A stretch of DNA of 7,977 nucleotides from an uncultured archaeon (GTDB taxonomy: Archaea; Iainarchaeota; Iainarchaeia; Iainarchaeales; CSSED10-239): contig CAYXAY010000004.1 in assembly GCA_964463155.1 (NCBI GenBank), positions 4,469 through 12,445 on the forward strand, read 5' to 3'. The position numbers were made by a program, and so were the translations under genes. Positions 1 to 7,746 of the stretch are shown piece after piece. Each line of letters begins with the position of its first letter. Position 1 is the first letter of the stretch. The notes under the pieces were generated by a model. The model was not told where the DNA came from, ran no database searches, and saw nothing but the letters and a program-made list of their open reading frames with translations.

Positions 1-757
1 TGTAGACTGGCATAAGGAATACACTAAATATTAAAATAAATATCAGAAAGAACAAAAAAATATTAATTTCAAACAAAAGAGTTATTTTGCTTCTTTGCCT
101 TTCTTCTTTTTCTTTTCTCAAGTGTTCTGTTGACTCCAAATAATCCTTTATGACATCAGAAAGATTTGATTTGTTGTCAAGAACATCTATCATCCTTGAG
201 AAAAACGCATATTCTTGCTCAGAGTAGGTATTGCTACAAATGTATTTTACTGTTCCTTTAAGGTTATTGTTCAAATCAGACATTGCAAGAATCTTTTTGG
301 ACTCCTCTGTAAGTAATTTGTTTTTTTCAAACTTTTGAAACAACAATAGCACCTCTTTTACTGTCAAGTTTTTGTCCTGCAAGACAGAAAGGTGCTTTAT
401 GCTTCTTTCAAGTTCGTTTTCTATTTCCTTTTTGTTTGACACCACAATATAGTGCGGATATTTATATAATGTGATAAAGACAAATCCTCCAAAAGTTGTT
501 GCAATTATTATTGTAAGGATAAATGTAAATATTGTAAACAGAATGTTTAGTTTTAACATCACAAAAATCATCAAAAACTCAAGGCAAAAACCAACAATAA
601 ATGATAAAAAGATTATGTTTGAAAGATAGGTTTGTATGTCTTCGTCAATATTTGTTATTGCTAGTGTCTTTGTAAGCTCTTTAAATCTTGGAGCTATTCT
701 TTTTGAAATGTCTCCAAAGAAGAAATCAGAAACTTTTGAGAACTGTTTGCCAAACAT
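1..757 (-). CDS. FlaJ/TadC-like platform membrane protein (T2SS-F family) of a type IV pilus/archaellum-like machine; C-terminus lies beyond the window edge
   Basis: Absent from the supplied ORF track because it runs off the window. My own translation from the ATG at 757..755 is open for all 252 codons: MFGKQFSKVSDFFFGDISKRIAPRFKELTKTLAITNIDEDIQTYLSNIIFLSFIVGFCLEFLMIFVMLKLNILFTIFTFILTIIIATTFGGFVFITLYKYPHYIVVSNKKEIENELERSIKHLSVLQDKNLTVKEVLLLFQKFEKNKLLTEESKKILAMSDLNNNLKGTVKYICSNTYSEQEYAFFSRMIDVLDNKSNLSDVIKDYLESTEHLRKEKEERQRSKITLLFEINIFLFFLIFILIFSVFLMPVY. The layout is a short cytoplasmic N-terminus, two TM helices, a ~130-aa helical soluble domain and then another TM helix, which is the T2SS-F/FlaJ arrangement. 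The start lies 1 nt after the stop of the FlaI-like gene. A GGGGT Shine-Dalgarno-like element (complement of 766-770) sits 8 nt upstream. Confidence 0.7.
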   Translation of the reverse strand, partial: MFGKQFSKVSDFFFGDISKRIAPRFKELTKTLAITNIDEDIQTYLSNIIFLSFIVGFCLEFLMIFVMLKLNILFTIFTFILTIIIATTFGGFVFITLYKYPHYIVVSNKKEIENELERSIKHLSVLQDKNLTVKEVLLLFQKFEKNKLLTEESKKILAMSDLNNNLKGTVKYICSNTYSEQEYAFFSRMIDVLDNKSNLSDVIKDYLESTEHLRKEKEERQRSKITLLFEINIFLFFLIFILIFSVFLMPVY

Positions 758-758
758 A

Positions 759-3134
759 TTATTCTACCCCTGCTTGGATGTTTAGTTTGGTTAGTAGTTG
801 CTCTTTGTTTTGATAATAGTCGTTGACTATGTTGTTAAAGTCTAGACTATCTGTTATGCCTGAATCGATAAGCCATCTTAATAGTTTTTTGTGTCTTATG
901 AAATTGACTATGCTTATGTTTGAGGAAATTAGGTTAATATGGAAATCCATTTCTTTTTCTATATATTCAACCACATTGTATTTGTTGCCATTGTATATCT
1001 CTGTGATGTTTCTTATCTGCATCTGTTCAACATTGTTACTGTTTGTTCTTCCCAATTGAATTATTATTTTATTAAAACCCATTATCTTTGATTTTTTCAA
1101 ATATTCCCCTAAGATGCTTTTGTCAAGATACAGCATGTTTATCTCATACCATTTGGTGTCAAATAAATCCTCTGTAAAGTTGTCAAGTATTAGGTAATCG
1201 GATCTTTGGGAAATTGCTTGTGAAAGAATTGTTTTTTTACTTATTGAGGAGTTGTCTAAAATCAATTTCTTAATCCAGTTTTTCTGAGGCAATTTTATGT
1301 AATCAAATGATTGTATGGTGGTTATCTTCTTATCAGGATAGAAATGTGCTAATGCCGATAATAATAATGTGCTGTCTCCCCCAACAATAACCACTTGATA
1401 ATCTTCGTCTATGGCTGTCCATATATATGAGAATATGTCTGGAGCACCAATGCCTAGGTTAATGAGATTTACTGGTGTCAACGGATCTTCCAGATATTTC
1501 TTTATAACAAAGGAAGAACCTTTATTGCTTGTATCCCCTACAGAATATAATCCTTCGACCTTGTAGCCATTTGGCAAATAACCATTTATTACTGGCTGTG
1601 TAGAATTGACTTGTAAGCCCATTATTTTTGTCAAAGATAGAACATACTGGTTCAATTTTGCTATACTTTCAAACTTAAGATTCGTTTCTAGTCCCCCATA
1701 CAAGAGATGATACACTGTTATTGGCATATGCTCCCCTGAACAGCTTATTTCAATTATGTTTTTGTCCTCTAGCACACTTGATAAAAATCCAAATCCCGAA
1801 AAATCCCTTTTTATGAAATTAAAATAAAGTTTATTTTCTAAATCAGTTAGATTATAAGATAATTTGTCTATTGTTAGGTCATATATCTTTTGTATATAGC
1901 TGTTGATTGTTTGTTTATCTCCTTTAAAGGACAAGTAGTTTGAATCAATTGAATCCAAGAACAATCTTTTTATTTCCTTATAGGTTTCTTCTTGGTTCTT
2001 GCTTAGCTCTGGCTGGATTATGTTATATAACAAACCATTTGAGGCATAATCCAGATTAACAAATGTAAATTCATCTATATTGTATTTCTCAGAAATTTCT
2101 TTTCTATCAAGTATTGCTGTTTTTGGTTTAATACTATAGATTAGTTCTTGCATTTTTGATTGTGATTTTGGATTAATGCTTTCGGATCTTTCCTTTTCTG
2201 TCTTTGCTTTAAAATCTGTTGGAAGTATGTAATCAAAAGGAGTTTTTGGCTTTTGGTCTTGTTCTTTGAAGACTTTTGAAAATTCTTCTTTTTGTTTGAT
2301 TGCTTGTTGGTTACTTTTTTGAATAATATTTTTTTGGTTTTTTATCTTTATTTCTATGTGTGGATTTGGAACTACTTTCTTATCTTCCATTACAAAAATT
2401 GGGGCAGTTGGTGTTTTTTCTACAGGCTTTTGTTCATAGCTTGAAAACTCTTTTATAATTGCCTGAGATATCTTTGTCTCATCAGGAATTGAAACAATTT
2501 CTGGAATTTCTATTTCTTCTAGTAACGCCTGTATCTTTTTTGGTTTTAGCTCAGGTCTTTTGTTTTGGTTTAGGTATTCTGTTTGAATTACTTTTGGAGT
2601 AGCTTCTTTGTTTGCTATTGAATCTATTTTAGCATAGAGGTGAGAAACATTCATGCTTTTTATTGGAATCTTCTCAATTTTTGGTTGGTCGCCAAGAAAG
2701 CTTATCGATTCAAAAAATGGCAGTTCTTCTTCTACTTTTTCCAGGTGTTTATTTAGGGAATCCAATAGCCCGTCCATATTTGGGGCATCTTTATCCACTA
2801 TGTTATCCAAATGATTAGAGGTTATTTCTTCATAATGTTCTGTTAGTTTGTTTGATATTACTTGTAGTCTTTTCTTTTCAATCTCTAATTTTAATGAGTT
2901 TTCAAGATTGTCAGGGACAGTATTTTTTTCTTTTTGCACAGCCATGATTTTATTTTCTTTATTCTTGGAATAGTCGTGTGGTTTTAATTTTGGATTTATT
3001 TTTTGTATTTTGTGCTGATAGCTATCTTGTTTGTGTTTTTCAGAACTTAGATTAAATTTTGGGGACACAGTTTTAATTATCTTATTTGAATCATCAAAAT
3101 CTTTGATTCTTTCTAGTTTTTTTAACTCGACCAT
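759..3134 (-). CDS. FlaI/GspE (T2SSE) family secretion-ATPase homolog with degenerate NTPase motifs and a ~350-aa low-complexity N-terminal extension
   Basis: 791-aa ORF ending in TAA. From about aa 355 it follows the archaeal FlaI/PilB pattern throughout. N-terminal domain: YNIIQPEL, KRDFSGFGFLSSVLEDKNIIEISCSG (compare rd.GyG...l.D..iEDIs.nG). Middle: LPNGYKVEGLYSVGDTSNKGSSFVIKKY..PLTPVNLI (compare LpdGsRi...ftIRkf...P.tp.dLi) and PDIFSYIWTAIDEDYQVVIVGG. C-terminal tail: KKLLRWLIDSGITDSLDFNNIVNDYYQNKEQLL (compare the FlaI tail R..iL.wl...gi.dy..v...i..yy.dpe.vl). The canonical Walker A position reads VGGDSTLLLSAL instead of G.T.SGKTT.LNAL. Confidence 0.85.
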   Translation of the reverse strand: MVELKKLERIKDFDDSNKIIKTVSPKFNLSSEKHKQDSYQHKIQKINPKLKPHDYSKNKENKIMAVQKEKNTVPDNLENSLKLEIEKKRLQVISNKLTEHYEEITSNHLDNIVDKDAPNMDGLLDSLNKHLEKVEEELPFFESISFLGDQPKIEKIPIKSMNVSHLYAKIDSIANKEATPKVIQTEYLNQNKRPELKPKKIQALLEEIEIPEIVSIPDETKISQAIIKEFSSYEQKPVEKTPTAPIFVMEDKKVVPNPHIEIKIKNQKNIIQKSNQQAIKQKEEFSKVFKEQDQKPKTPFDYILPTDFKAKTEKERSESINPKSQSKMQELIYSIKPKTAILDRKEISEKYNIDEFTFVNLDYASNGLLYNIIQPELSKNQEETYKEIKRLFLDSIDSNYLSFKGDKQTINSYIQKIYDLTIDKLSYNLTDLENKLYFNFIKRDFSGFGFLSSVLEDKNIIEISCSGEHMPITVYHLLYGGLETNLKFESIAKLNQYVLSLTKIMGLQVNSTQPVINGYLPNGYKVEGLYSVGDTSNKGSSFVIKKYLEDPLTPVNLINLGIGAPDIFSYIWTAIDEDYQVVIVGGDSTLLLSALAHFYPDKKITTIQSFDYIKLPQKNWIKKLILDNSSISKKTILSQAISQRSDYLILDNFTEDLFDTKWYEINMLYLDKSILGEYLKKSKIMGFNKIIIQLGRTNSNNVEQMQIRNITEIYNGNKYNVVEYIEKEMDFHINLISSNISIVNFIRHKKLLRWLIDSGITDSLDFNNIVNDYYQNKEQLLTKLNIQAGVE

Positions 3135-3931: not shown

Positions 3932-4870
3932 TTATTTTTCTGCTTTTGTTTTCTTGGAATCAAATGCTGTTTTTGTAAGATGTATCAAATCATCATAGGC
4001 TTTTCTTTTTGTTATCCTTGCCGTTGACCTTTCAAACAATTCATCTGTGTATTTCCCTGGTGGTCCAAAAGACTTTATTTGTCTTTTTGCTATTTTGTTA
4101 AGTATTGCTTGGTTTTGAATAGTTGTGTTTGTTTCGTCAAGAACCGTTTTTGCTAAGTCCATTGTCAGGACTCCACTACCAATCCTGTCAACATAATCTG
4201 TTCCTGAACCGGCAGTTACAAAATTTGCCATCTCTGAAAGCTTTATTGTTGCAGCAAACTTGTATACCATATCGTAGCTTTTTTGGTCAATCTTTTTATT
4301 TAGCCTATCTGCAACTTTTGATATTCCCACAATATTTAATGCTTTGTGAGATTGGACAAATTCTAAGACTTCTATTAGGGTCTTTAAGAAAAATGAATCA
4401 TACATGTAATAGGAGAGATAGCCAATCATTCCATTGTAAGCTTCTACTCCTACATTTTTCTCTTTAATGAATTTTTCAAGTTTTGAAAGTCCCATCTTAT
4501 AACTTGCAGAATTATGTATTAATCCAAAGGGATGTGCTATTACAAAAAGATAATTTTTTCTTTCACACAGGTCATAGATTCTTTTCATTGAAACATTTTC
4601 CTCAAAGAAAACACTATAGCTGTAAATGTCTTCATTTGGAGCATAGACTAAAACATCGCCTGCATCTGTTGCAATTGTCAAACCAGGGATTAAAACATTT
4701 GCTTTTGGTTTATCCTTTAACAAATCAAAATATGCCTTTTTTGGATTCTTGTTTGAATAATCAGTTATTGCTGTTCCAAGAAGATTGTTTTTGTTAACAA
4801 ACTGCCAATATCTTTTACTTGATTGCTTTCTTTTCAAGAAATGTGTGTTTAAATCCAGGTTATATGGCAT
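3932..4870 (-). CDS. PHP-domain-like (polymerase/histidinol-phosphatase superfamily) protein with several metal-ligand substitutions; function unknown
   Basis: 312-aa ORF ending in TAA, starting 2 nt after the stop of the upstream gene. Motif-level resemblance to PHP: NLDLNTHF (canonical DxHxH), GLTIATDAGDVLVY (canonical GxExs..gHxLxy), FVIAHPF (AHP motif intact), GVEAYNG (canonical iEvxNg) and TAGSGTDYVDRIGSG (canonical GSDAH...iG). The assignment rests on remembered motifs, not on a search. Confidence 0.45.
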   Translation of the reverse strand: MPYNLDLNTHFLKRKQSSKRYWQFVNKNNLLGTAITDYSNKNPKKAYFDLLKDKPKANVLIPGLTIATDAGDVLVYAPNEDIYSYSVFFEENVSMKRIYDLCERKNYLFVIAHPFGLIHNSASYKMGLSKLEKFIKEKNVGVEAYNGMIGYLSYYMYDSFFLKTLIEVLEFVQSHKALNIVGISKVADRLNKKIDQKSYDMVYKFAATIKLSEMANFVTAGSGTDYVDRIGSGVLTMDLAKTVLDETNTTIQNQAILNKIAKRQIKSFGPPGKYTDELFERSTARITKRKAYDDLIHLTKTAFDSKKTKAEK

Positions 4871-5663: not shown

Positions 5664-6965
5664 ATGAAATTACGGTGCCTCGGGGCAGGACAAGAAGTTG
5701 GAAGAAGTGCCCTATTACTGAAAGGCAAAGATAACATACTGTTGGATTATGGTTTGAAACTTAATCCTACAACACAAACAAAAGAAGATTTGGAATTACC
5801 AGCAAAGACCAAACATCCAAAAATTGTTAAAGAAGAATTGACTGGAGTAATCCTAAGCCATGCTCATCTTGACCATTCTGGCGCAATACCCACTCTTTAT
5901 AAGAATTCAAATGCACCATTGTTCTTAACAGAACCAACATTAGAACTTTCAAACCTTCTGTGGAAAGACACTCTTAAGATTGCAAAGCTTACTGGAGAAG
6001 ATTGTGAGTTTAAGCCAAATCATGTAGATGATACAAACAACTCTGCATTCTATATAGATTACAGAGTGCCTGTCCAAATATCTCCAAACACAAGAATTAC
6101 TTTCTATGATGCAGGACATATTGTGGGAAGTGTTATGCCTCTTATTGAAATGGATACGAAAAAAATACTTTATACCGGAGACTTTAGAGCAACTCAAAGC
6201 CAGATGTTTAAAAGTTATGACAAAAAACTGCCACAGGTGGATGTATTAATAACAGAAACAACCTATGGAGATATCCCACACAAAGACAGAAAAGAACAAG
6301 AAAAGCTTTTGATTGACGAGATTAAAGAAACAATTGACAATAGAGGAATAGTAATTCTTCCTGCGTTTGCAATAGAAAGATCTCAAGAATTAGTAAGCAT
6401 TCTTGATAGATACAACATAAAGGCACCTATATACTTAGATGGTATGGCAAAAAAAGCAACAACCATCTTTGCTCAATATCCTGATCAGTTTTATGATTAT
6501 TCTAGATTTAAGAAAGCAGTTGATAAGATTGAGTTTATTAAAAACCAAAAGACAAGAGAAAAGATTGTCTCTGCAAACACCTCTTGTATTATCATAACAA
6601 CTGCAGGTATGCTTGAAGGTGGGCCGGTTTTAGGTTTTATTAGAGACTTGGGGGGCGACCCCAGAAACAAAATAATCCTTACTGGTTACCAGGTTGAAGG
6701 AACAAACGGGAGAAGATTACTTGATAACGGAAAACTTTATATTGATGGTAAGATTTATGCACCAAGAGCAAAAGTAACAAAATATAACTTCTCGGCACAT
6801 GCTGACAAGAACGAAATATTGGAGTTAATTAAAATTGTTAATCCAAAGAAAGTCATTGGCATACACGGAAATAAAAATGTTACCTTTAATTTTAAGGCAG
6901 AACTAAAAAAACTAGGAATAAATGCAGAAAATCCAGCAACTGGTGATATGATAGATTTAGATTAG
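5664..6965 (+). CDS. Metallo-beta-lactamase fold beta-CASP ribonuclease, KH-less archaeal CPSF homolog (aCPSF2-like)
   Basis: 433-aa ORF ending in TAG. All signature motifs are visible: LLDYG (motif 1 Asp), SHAHLDHSG (HxHxDH, nt 5859-5876), DAGHIVGS (motif 3 His), LYTGDF (motif 4 Asp), TETTYG (beta-CASP motif A), FSAHAD (motif B His) and GIHG (motif C His). At ~430 aa with no N-terminal KH domains it fits the aCPSF2 group rather than aCPSF1. Confidence 0.85.
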   Translation: MKLRCLGAGQEVGRSALLLKGKDNILLDYGLKLNPTTQTKEDLELPAKTKHPKIVKEELTGVILSHAHLDHSGAIPTLYKNSNAPLFLTEPTLELSNLLWKDTLKIAKLTGEDCEFKPNHVDDTNNSAFYIDYRVPVQISPNTRITFYDAGHIVGSVMPLIEMDTKKILYTGDFRATQSQMFKSYDKKLPQVDVLITETTYGDIPHKDRKEQEKLLIDEIKETIDNRGIVILPAFAIERSQELVSILDRYNIKAPIYLDGMAKKATTIFAQYPDQFYDYSRFKKAVDKIEFIKNQKTREKIVSANTSCIIITTAGMLEGGPVLGFIRDLGGDPRNKIILTGYQVEGTNGRRLLDNGKLYIDGKIYAPRAKVTKYNFSAHADKNEILELIKIVNPKKVIGIHGNKNVTFNFKAELKKLGINAENPATGDMIDLD

Positions 6966-6975
6966 AAAGAAAAAC

Positions 6976-7746
6976 ATGCAAAGATTTTGTCCTAAATGTG
7001 GAAAGAATGTTCCTGAAGAGAGGGTGATACATAACTTTTGTTTAAATTGTTATGTTGAAGACCATCAGGTGATTATTGCTCCTACATTTGAGATAACCTA
7101 TTGCCCTAAATGTAAGAAATTCAAATATGCAAGACGGTTTTTTGATAATAAAGAAAGTCTTGAAAGAGAACTTGTTAAGCATATAAAAATAAAAGACATA
7201 GAGCAGGCAAAGGCTAATGTTAGTTTAATTCTTGATTTTGAAAAGCACGAATATTATGTAAGTGTTGTTGCTAAGGCTTTAATCGCTAATTCTATTCAAG
7301 AAATTGCCATGGAAAAGGATATTTCTTTAAGGGTTGAACCCTGTGTAGAATGCCTTAAGGAATCAAGCCATTATTACACAACAATCTTACAATTAAGGTT
7401 TGACACCAAAGACTTGTTAAAAGAACTTCTGCCGATTCTTGTTAAGCAAATAGAAAACCAAGTAAGAACTATCAATAATGCAGAAACAAGTAAAAACAAG
7501 CCATTCTTTATTGCAAAGACTATTAAACAAAAGACTGGTATTGACATTTATTTAAATGATATTGACCATACCGAAAAGGTAAGAAAAACATTACTTTACA
7601 ATAAGCAGGTAAAAACCTGGCAAAGAACAAGAAGCCTTGTTACTGCAGACAAAGCCGGCAAAAGAAAATATCGTCATACCATCTGCTTACATTACGGACA
7701 ATTGCCAACAGATAATCCACAAGAATTACCTGAACAAAAAAATTAA
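6976..7746 (+). CDS. nmd3: NMD3-family protein (archaeal homolog of the 60S/50S subunit biogenesis factor), short form
   Basis: 256-aa ORF starting 10 nt after the beta-CASP stop. It has the N-terminal Cys clusters CPKC-x13-CLNC, then CPKC, then CVEC followed by SHYYTTILQLR. The last matches the NMD3 hallmark C..C....g.YyEAilQvR. Confidence 0.75.
   Translation: MQRFCPKCGKNVPEERVIHNFCLNCYVEDHQVIIAPTFEITYCPKCKKFKYARRFFDNKESLERELVKHIKIKDIEQAKANVSLILDFEKHEYYVSVVAKALIANSIQEIAMEKDISLRVEPCVECLKESSHYYTTILQLRFDTKDLLKELLPILVKQIENQVRTINNAETSKNKPFFIAKTIKQKTGIDIYLNDIDHTEKVRKTLLYNKQVKTWQRTRSLVTADKAGKRKYRHTICLHYGQLPTDNPQELPEQKN

Follow-up and report, generated by a model that had tools for sequence, protein, structure and literature searches.

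A type IV filament motor homolog without NTPase motifs, conserved in a pilus-like locus of Iainarchaeota

The stretch of DNA analysed here (the window; 7,977 nucleotides (nt) of contig CAYXAY010000004.1 from an uncultured member of the Iainarchaeota) is AT-rich, with a G+C content of ~31%, and encodes a 791-amino-acid (aa) protein that has kept the fold of the GspE/FlaI/PilB secretion and pilus ATPases and lost all of their nucleoside triphosphatase (NTPase) motifs. This protein, referred to below as the pseudo-ATPase, is a pseudoenzyme: the fold is retained, the catalytic residues are gone, the loss is shared by its orthologs, and the gene is under purifying selection. Judged from its residues, it is predicted to be incapable of canonical ATP binding or hydrolysis. 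To our knowledge, every characterised type IV filament machine (type IV pili (T4P), type II secretion systems, Tad, Com, the archaellum and archaeal adhesion pili) uses an active GspE/PilB/FlaI hexamer. Pseudoenzymes and non-catalytic scaffolds with ATPase folds are familiar in general; what is new here is a dead copy of the motor itself, found throughout a clade and at the motor's own position in the operon.

Results

The fold of a secretion ATPase without its catalytic motifs

An earlier sequence-only reading of this DNA had placed the protein in the FlaI/GspE family, and sequence and structure comparisons bear this out. In phmmer searches of the PDB, the 791-aa protein matches GspE of Archaeoglobus fulgidus (afGspE; 2OAP, E=2e-39) and FlaI of Sulfolobus acidocaldarius (4II7, E=9e-27), and a profile built from the pseudo-ATPase family reaches E=4e-48 in sequence comparison with the superfamily. 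Strong similarity extends through the N-terminal domains as far as Walker B and is gone beyond that point. The N-terminal domains (aa 329–560), whose HMMER alignment covers residues 111–340 of 2OAP and 10–336 of 4II7, are the best-conserved region of the pseudo-ATPase, and the invariant residues that they have in common with canonical ATPases include D457, G467, Y475, H476, P521, G523, S540 and F542. Structure prediction, which the same reading had proposed as a check, matches both 2OAP and FlaI over the full length. The AlphaFold2 model of residues 321–791 (mean predicted local distance difference test score (pLDDT) 85.9, predicted template-modelling (TM) score 0.81) aligns with 2OAP in Foldseek at E=7e-34, with a TMq of 0.72 and ~500 aligned columns, and with FlaI at E=4e-31; CpaF/TadA, PilB, VirB11 and PilT rank after these two. 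The C-terminal RecA-like domain is detectable by sequence only up to Walker B, and by fold throughout.

Profiles that describe the active enzymes respond very differently to this protein. A scan with the Pfam T2SSE model (PF00437) returns no match to the 791-aa protein even at E<=0.1, and no such match is found in the precomputed Pfam assignments of the 18 orthologs retrieved by protein search (see below); the model fails to score because the motifs are so eroded. A weak, sub-threshold match to PilB3_C lies at aa 747–785 (21.2 bits against a gathering score of 27), and the FlaI/ArlI equivalog model NF058587 of NCBIfam gives 126 bits, far below its cut-off of 550. Since the superfamily fold is kept and the motifs are missing, the protein belongs to the GspE/FlaI/PilB superfamily by its structure and fails every catalytic criterion of membership.

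The losses can be followed motif by motif. There is no Gly-Lys dipeptide anywhere in the 791 residues, and the Walker A slot lacks three residues relative to GxxxxGK[ST], Ser588 occupying the position of the Lys; in the HMMER alignment, the query segment 'vvivg...gdstlllsal' stands opposite 'GEtaSGKTTtLNAi' of afGspE and FlaI, with the three-residue gap falling inside 'GEtaSGKTT'. In the Asp box, 'tiqsfdyi' is aligned to 'sIEDTrEi', so that IQSFDY takes the place of IEDTxE. At Walker B, 'lildn' faces 'iivGE', and N652 falls on position 336 of the FlaI chain, the Glu of 'vGE'. The His box has been removed by a deletion of five residues, with 'N-----M' in place of the 'ATGHTSYATVH' of the canonical relatives P0020–P0022, and the surrounding sequence is free of His from aa 598 to 731, the nearest ones being at 597 and 732. 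Relative to the canonical proteins there are further loop deletions in the C-terminal domain, and in all ~50 residues of the active-site loops are gone. The loss of the four motifs had been recognised in the sequence-only reading. All the strings that it quoted are present, and its coordinates for the Walker A and Walker B strings (1347–1394 and 1164–1202) are off by 3 nt, which is immaterial (Table 1).

The loss is shared by all orthologs and the gene is tightly constrained

Orthologs were gathered from a protein search (18 sequences, 47–73% identity), a scan of species-representative genomes (at least 11 more, among the best 80 of 489 loci) and a scan of metagenomes (29 more), which after de-duplication left 37 distinct sequences in 45 loci. 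They are 46–75% identical over the folded part and come mostly from metagenome-assembled genomes (MAGs) labelled Iainarchaeum/Diapherotrites; the taxon names among the genome-scan orthologs are Candidatus Iainarchaeum, Diapherotrites and 'ainarchaeum'. No Walker A motif is present in any of the 37 sequences. The P-loop slot is short in all of them, by two or three residues, or by one in loci L010 and L009, and the former Lys position is occupied by Ser (21), Asn (8), Ala (4), Lys (2) or Thr (1). The two Lys residues are those of L010 and L009, where they form part of a 'DKS' that lacks the second Gly and sits in a loop that is still short. Loss of the Asp box, of the Walker B Glu and of the His box is likewise universal.

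The vacated site has acquired a conservation of its own. Q608, D611, F653 and W662 are newly fixed and invariant in the old pocket, D651 is kept in 36 of the 37 sequences and D587 in 31, and in 15 of them D651 is followed by Glu. The nucleotide pocket has been remodelled instead of being left to drift.

Selection on the gene was estimated from nonsynonymous to synonymous rate ratios (dN/dS; Nei-Gojobori method, unsaturated pairs with dS of 0.5–1.2). The values are 0.02–0.08 for the N-terminal domains and 0.06–0.10 for the dead C-terminal domain, which gives 0.017–0.11 in the two closest pairs (dS <=0.2). Platform gene 1, the FlaJ/TadC-like gene next to it, lies at 0.04–0.11, and the pseudo-ATPase is thus constrained as tightly as the adjoining platform protein. 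The other genes of the locus give 0.08–0.15 (platform gene 2), 0.11–0.27 (the A24 peptidase), 0.10–0.33 (DUF192) and 0.045–0.08 (the 312-aa protein). Because dN/dS is low and equal to that of the platform, the gene is no pseudogene. Decay of the gene, or a sequencing or assembly artefact in a single MAG, is suggested by the missing motifs and by nothing else; the 2.4-kb reading frame is unbroken here, as it is in the 44 other loci, which stem from independent assemblies, the same substitutions recur everywhere, and, with 37 orthologs sharing the loss at a dN/dS of 0.02–0.10, this explanation is refuted and retains practically no probability.

A rough tree (quick neighbour-joining (NJ) from a fast alignment, with midpoint rooting) gathers all 34 full-length pseudo-ATPases in one clade. 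The stem of this clade is the longest internal branch, at 0.99 substitutions per site where the median is 0.05. Because the family is monophyletic on so long a branch, the likeliest history appears to be one ancient inactivation followed by rapid remodelling.

A variable N-terminal extension with conserved islands

Preceding the folded domains is an extension (aa 1–328) that is rich in Lys (16.6%) and Glu (11.3%) and has a pLDDT below 50 over most of its length in an AlphaFold2 model of the full-length protein. The extension differs in length among orthologs, whose open reading frames (ORFs) range from 788 to ~1,200 aa, and its dN/dS is 0.23–0.56 in the better-resolved pairs. Its N-terminus, 'MVELKK', is kept among close orthologs, and the extension is therefore truly coding. 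Conserved islands at aa 121–175, 204–219 and 301–307, which include stretches such as E.iSFLgd.PK..KI, llEei.iP.iv and dYilPtD, may serve as docking motifs. As modelled, the extension looks like a disordered tether that bears short linear motifs.

The locus resembles an adhesion-pilus module

The pseudo-ATPase gene is embedded in a conserved order of genes: NMD3, a beta-CASP nuclease, in some loci an ATP-grasp_5 gene, the 312-aa protein, the A24 peptidase, the pseudo-ATPase, a T2SSF gene (280 aa), a T2SSF-like gene (~378 aa) and DUF192, beyond which lie ribosomal protein L10e/L16, a Trm11-like methyltransferase and NDK. The core of this order, from the peptidase to DUF192, is kept in 27–33 of 37 loci. 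Platform gene 1, of whose product 252 aa are visible in the window, is 280 aa long in orthologous loci, where it matches Pfam T2SSF, and it adjoins the pseudo-ATPase in 33 of the 37. The close junction that the sequence-only reading described is present as stated: the stop codon of the pseudo-ATPase (TAA, 759–761) is separated by one base from the FlaJ-like ATG (755–757), and a Shine-Dalgarno-like GGGG lies ~10 nt upstream of that start. Adjacent on the other side, in 31 of 37 loci, is the A24 peptidase, in which D22 and G84-E-G-D87 (D87 being the Asp of GxGD) are invariant in 30 of 30 orthologs examined; the enzyme is plausibly active, as had been supposed.

Among the deeper-branching members, which make up half of the family, DUF192 is directly followed by one to three genes whose products begin with an archaeal class III signal peptide (MDRKKSISAIISVVLLILVTAVLVAGFLSW is an example). 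These products are 175 to 2,471 aa long, and Laminin_G_3 or PKD domains occur in some of them; they are pilin-like subunits or adhesins, and the gene set of an adhesion-type T4P (ATPase homolog, TadC-like platform, A24 peptidase, class III pilins) is complete in this half of the family. The peptidase, the class III signal-peptide genes and a layout like that of the canonical P0020 locus argue for reading the locus as a derived adhesion-type, PilB3-like T4P module, not an archaellum. Genes for FlaF/G/H/X(CDE) and archaellins are absent from the locus order and from the Pfam tables of the called genes over ~10 kb, which leave some unclustered ORFs unscanned. An archaellum identity is rejected, given the low NF058587 score and the lack of FlaH/X/F/G in the locus. 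The earlier description of the locus as pilus-like stands, with the qualification that it is of the adhesion-pilus type and not an archaellum.

Two side observations concern the genes at this end of the locus. DUF192 (COG1430), of ~116 aa, follows platform gene 2 in 27 of the 37 loci (for example, at 14481–14840 in L001); it persists where the platform genes have been lost, and is a candidate for an uncharacterised component of the module. Directly after it, in L112 (14809–22224) and L110 (10937–17761), are giant class III signal-peptide proteins of 2,274–2,471 aa, which are candidate pilus-tip or surface adhesins that would be processed by the A24 peptidase.

Canonical ATPases occur in related genomes, some on the same contig

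The closest canonical relative, P0020 (locus L004), is 35% identical to the pseudo-ATPase over 40% of its length. Its motifs are intact (GGTASGKTT, IEDTRE, VGEVRG and the His box), and its locus contains an A24 peptidase, a Pilin_N pilin, the ATPase itself with an N-terminal extension, two T2SSF genes and Laminin_G_3 proteins. Among the best 80 of the 489 loci, no canonical match was found in the same assembly as a pseudo-ATPase locus, a result that is uninformative as to absence; the ATPase described next is missed by the pseudo-ATPase query at E<=1e-5.

Directly after DUF192 in L010 is a gene (10080–11870) for a 596-aa Fer4-T2SSE ATPase, which carries a 4Fe-4S dicluster domain at its N-terminus and in which the motifs are intact (GNTGSGKTT, VEEVRE, PDRVVIGEIR, TFH); T2SSF-like genes of its own and a VTT/DedA gene follow. 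With the Trm11 gene as a bridge, further contigs were found that carry both proteins: the Fer4 ATPase is 13 kb from the pseudo-ATPase in L124 (JBBISB010000002.1) and 12 kb from it, with intact motifs, in L126 and L127 (ENA contigs; 16061–17824 in L126). The two thus share a contig in at least three lineages (L010, L124 and L126/L127), at distances of 0–13 kb. In L122, a syntenic Laminin_G_3 block lies upstream of the Fer4 module, and the flank ends before the position at which the pseudo-ATPase would be expected. Such a neighbouring canonical module could supply energy in trans; the ring encoded by the locus itself is dead by its sequence, yet the cell need not lack a motor.

The Fer4-T2SSE family is abundant in Iainarchaeota and Micrarchaeota (other examples are L086, 6001–7740, and L090, 6001–7749). 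It is always found with its own module, consisting of a protein of 250–380 aa, one or two small T2SSF genes and a VTT/DedA protein, and this module usually adjoins PCC and phosphoribosyl pyrophosphate (PRPP)-synthase genes. It is unusual for a pilus-type ATPase to bear a redox-cluster domain.

Discussion

A proposed inert scaffold and its alternatives

The reading that we favour, and consider probable, is that the pseudo-ATPase is an inert scaffold, a ring or cap seated on the platform, and that the energy for assembly is supplied in trans or is not needed. Inactivation would have occurred once, at the base of the Iainarchaeota (Diapherotrites, DPANN) clade, followed by a burst of change in the C-terminal domain and then by strong purifying selection. 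The protein may form an inert cytoplasmic ring or cap and attach to the split FlaJ/TadC platform by way of its conserved N-terminal and remodelled C-terminal domains, while its Lys/Glu-rich disordered tail would recruit partners through short motifs. The energy for pilin extraction would then be provided in trans, most plausibly by the Fer4 T2SSE ATPase; alternatively, the module might have been reduced to prepilin processing and a surface display that requires no motor.

Several points weigh against this scheme. The ring, the binding to the platform and the contact with the Fer4 ATPase are things that we infer. The Fer4 ATPase has T2SSF genes of its own and may serve only its own system, and in L124 its gene (15937–17693) is interrupted by a single frameshift near 16416 and by a single in-frame stop shortly after the His box, with the motifs otherwise intact; these lesions may be errors of the MAG or may reflect recent decay of the canonical ATPase. 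In the window's subclade (L001, L006–L008, L098, L107, L109), no pilin gene is present in the locus, where DUF192 is followed by ~470 nt without a credible ORF or tRNA and then by L10e. Both platform genes are missing from L095 and L097, two independent assemblies of one lineage (on 287-kb and 52-kb contigs) in which the pseudo-ATPase, peptidase and DUF192 are intact and the pseudo-ATPase stop, ending at 12502, is closely followed by DUF192 at 12574; this argues against an obligate platform-bound role. Since pilins are missing in one group and platform genes in the other, the present role of the pseudo-ATPase may have drifted away from filament assembly. Thus, the sequence-only view of the protein as a retained scaffold rather than a pseudogene is supported by the conserved loss and low dN/dS, and is qualified by these two absences.

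The same absences favour an exapted regulator or brake, which might compete with an active ATPase for the platform and so impose an off or static state, or which might act through its pocket and tail in a function unrelated to pili. The retention of the pseudo-ATPase, peptidase and DUF192 without platform genes in L095/L097 and the lack of adjacent pilins in the window's subclade would both fit such a role; so would the new invariant acidic and polar residues of the pocket, which suggest a new ligand or partner, and the conserved islands within the N-terminal extension. However, 33 of 37 loci show the linkage to the platform gene, with its one-nucleotide juxtaposition, the pseudo-ATPase and platform are under equally strong selection, and the platform genes of L095/L097 may sit elsewhere in the genome, so that we regard exaptation as rather unlikely. 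It is conceivable, too, that the protein is still an NTPase, with an unconventional site of non-canonical geometry. Features that could be read in this way are the 'hhhhD[E/N]' at the Walker B slot, with its nearly invariant D651 and the Glu that often comes next, the 'DKS' in the P-loop slot of L010 and L009, and the fact that the pocket residues are constrained and not drifting. The Walker A Lys is essential in the P-loop NTPase fold, however, and here the P-loop is too short in every member, the second Gly is missing and there is no Lys in 35 of 37; in addition, the Asp and His boxes are gone, the loops around them are trimmed, and Pfam T2SSE does not score. Retained NTPase activity is therefore very improbable. 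To return to the favoured scaffold, a bolder form of it can be put forward as speculation and is itself unlikely: the operon's 'motor' would be an obligate inert stator ring, and a separate, redox-sensing 4Fe-4S T2SSE ATPase, swapping onto this ring or intercalating with it, would drive the assembly of filaments or adhesins on the split FlaJ platform in trans, or there would be no NTP hydrolysis at all. If true, this would be a new operating mode for the type IV filament superfamily.

Relation to known systems

afGspE (2OAP/2OAQ) and FlaI (4II7/4IHQ) share with the pseudo-ATPase the two-lobed fold, composed of an N-terminal domain (NTD) and a RecA-like C-terminal domain with C-terminal helices, as well as a gene neighbourhood that includes a platform gene of the FlaJ/TadC type and one for an A24 peptidase. 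The pseudo-ATPase differs from them in the four lost motifs and trimmed loops, in the addition of a mostly disordered N-terminal extension of ~320 aa, and in a locus without archaellum genes. It has the architecture of its locus in common with the ATPases of PilB3/PilC3-type adhesion pili and with P0020, and shows the weak PilB3_C match at its C-terminus, but the motifs that are intact in P0020 are lost throughout the pseudo-ATPase family. With the Fer4 T2SSE (CpaF/TadA-like) proteins it shares a superfamily and genomes; those proteins, by contrast, have canonical motifs, a 4Fe-4S domain and a module of their own. Non-catalytic scaffolds with ATPase folds are found in type IV filament machines as GspL/PilM (actin-like) and ArlH/FlaH (KaiC-like). 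The pseudo-ATPase would resemble these in that an ATPase fold is kept as a structural or regulatory part. They have other folds, however, and work alongside an active motor, whereas here it is the motor homolog itself that is dead.

A literature search that was incomplete turned up no published account of an archaeal T4P locus whose GspE/PilB/FlaI homolog is catalytically dead, which amounts to absence of evidence. A 2016 census of archaeal T4P (PMC4858521) makes no mention of an inactivated ATPase, of DUF192 or of a ferredoxin fusion, and ATPase inactivation is not mentioned in PMC6393860 either. A clade that holds a dead engine under tight selection, and keeps with it a peptidase, a platform and often pilins, is a natural experiment in which what the ring does structurally can be told apart from what it does catalytically. 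It bears on whether a non-cognate ATPase can drive platform proteins, and may relate to the way in which host-dependent DPANN archaea build attachment structures; it also poses the puzzle of how this pilus-like cluster of Iainarchaeota is powered, or what has taken the place of its motor. There is a practical side as well. A 1,006-aa member of the pseudo-ATPase family (P0024, in the cluster of P0019) is named 'flagellar protein FlaI' in IMG, and because dead members are annotated in this way, metabolic reconstructions that rely on such names would overstate motility or pilus capability.

Features of the window and remaining neighbours

Table 1. Features of the 7,977-nt window, in window coordinates
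Feature	Positions	Strand	Evidence
FlaJ/TadC-like platform gene 1 (T2SSF), cut by the window edge	1..757	-	NCBIfam ArlJ/FlaJ E=3e-12
Pseudo-ATPase gene, 791 aa, GspE/FlaI/PilB fold without NTPase motifs	759..3134	-	ORF, PDB matches, Foldseek, orthologs, dN/dS
N-terminal extension, aa 1-328	2151..3134	-	composition, pLDDT, conservation islands, dN/dS
N-terminal domains, aa 329-560, homologous to FlaI/GspE NTD/N2D	1455..2150	-	HMMER to 2OAP/4II7
C-terminal RecA-like domain, aa 561-791, dead active site, trimmed loops	762..1454	-	fold, alignments
Former Walker A slot, aa 581-595, VVIVGGDSTLLLSAL	1350..1394	-	alignments to structures and orthologs
Former Asp-box slot, aa 606-613, TIQSFDYI	1296..1319	-	alignments
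Former Walker B slot, aa 645-658, SDYLILDNFTEDLF	1161..1202	-	alignments
His-box deletion site, 5 residues, between N666 and M667	1134..1139	-	alignment with canonical P0020-P0022
A24 prepilin/preflagellin peptidase, 243 aa	3191..3922	-	Pfam Arc_PepC_II E=1e-9, Peptidase_A24 E=1.6e-5; FlaK E=1.3e-9
312-aa protein without assigned family	3932..4870	-	synteny, dN/dS
Stand-alone ATP-grasp_5 protein, 204 aa	4873..5487	-	E=8e-37
beta-CASP/RMMBL nuclease	5664..6965	+	annotation of the window
NMD3	6976..7746	+	annotation of the window

Rfam and tRNA scans of the whole window returned no RNA gene. Judged by the known distribution of the two families, NMD3 and an A24 peptidase of archaeal type indicate that the DNA is archaeal. 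The 312-aa protein, which lies directly upstream of the peptidase in 28 loci, has no significant match in Pfam, NCBIfam or the PDB, and gives a faint PHP/CehA-like hint at E=0.066; that it forms part of the pilus-like system is unproven. Its gene ranks with the most tightly constrained ones in this neighbourhood. The ATP-grasp_5 gene is found between the beta-CASP nuclease and the 312-aa gene in 18 loci.

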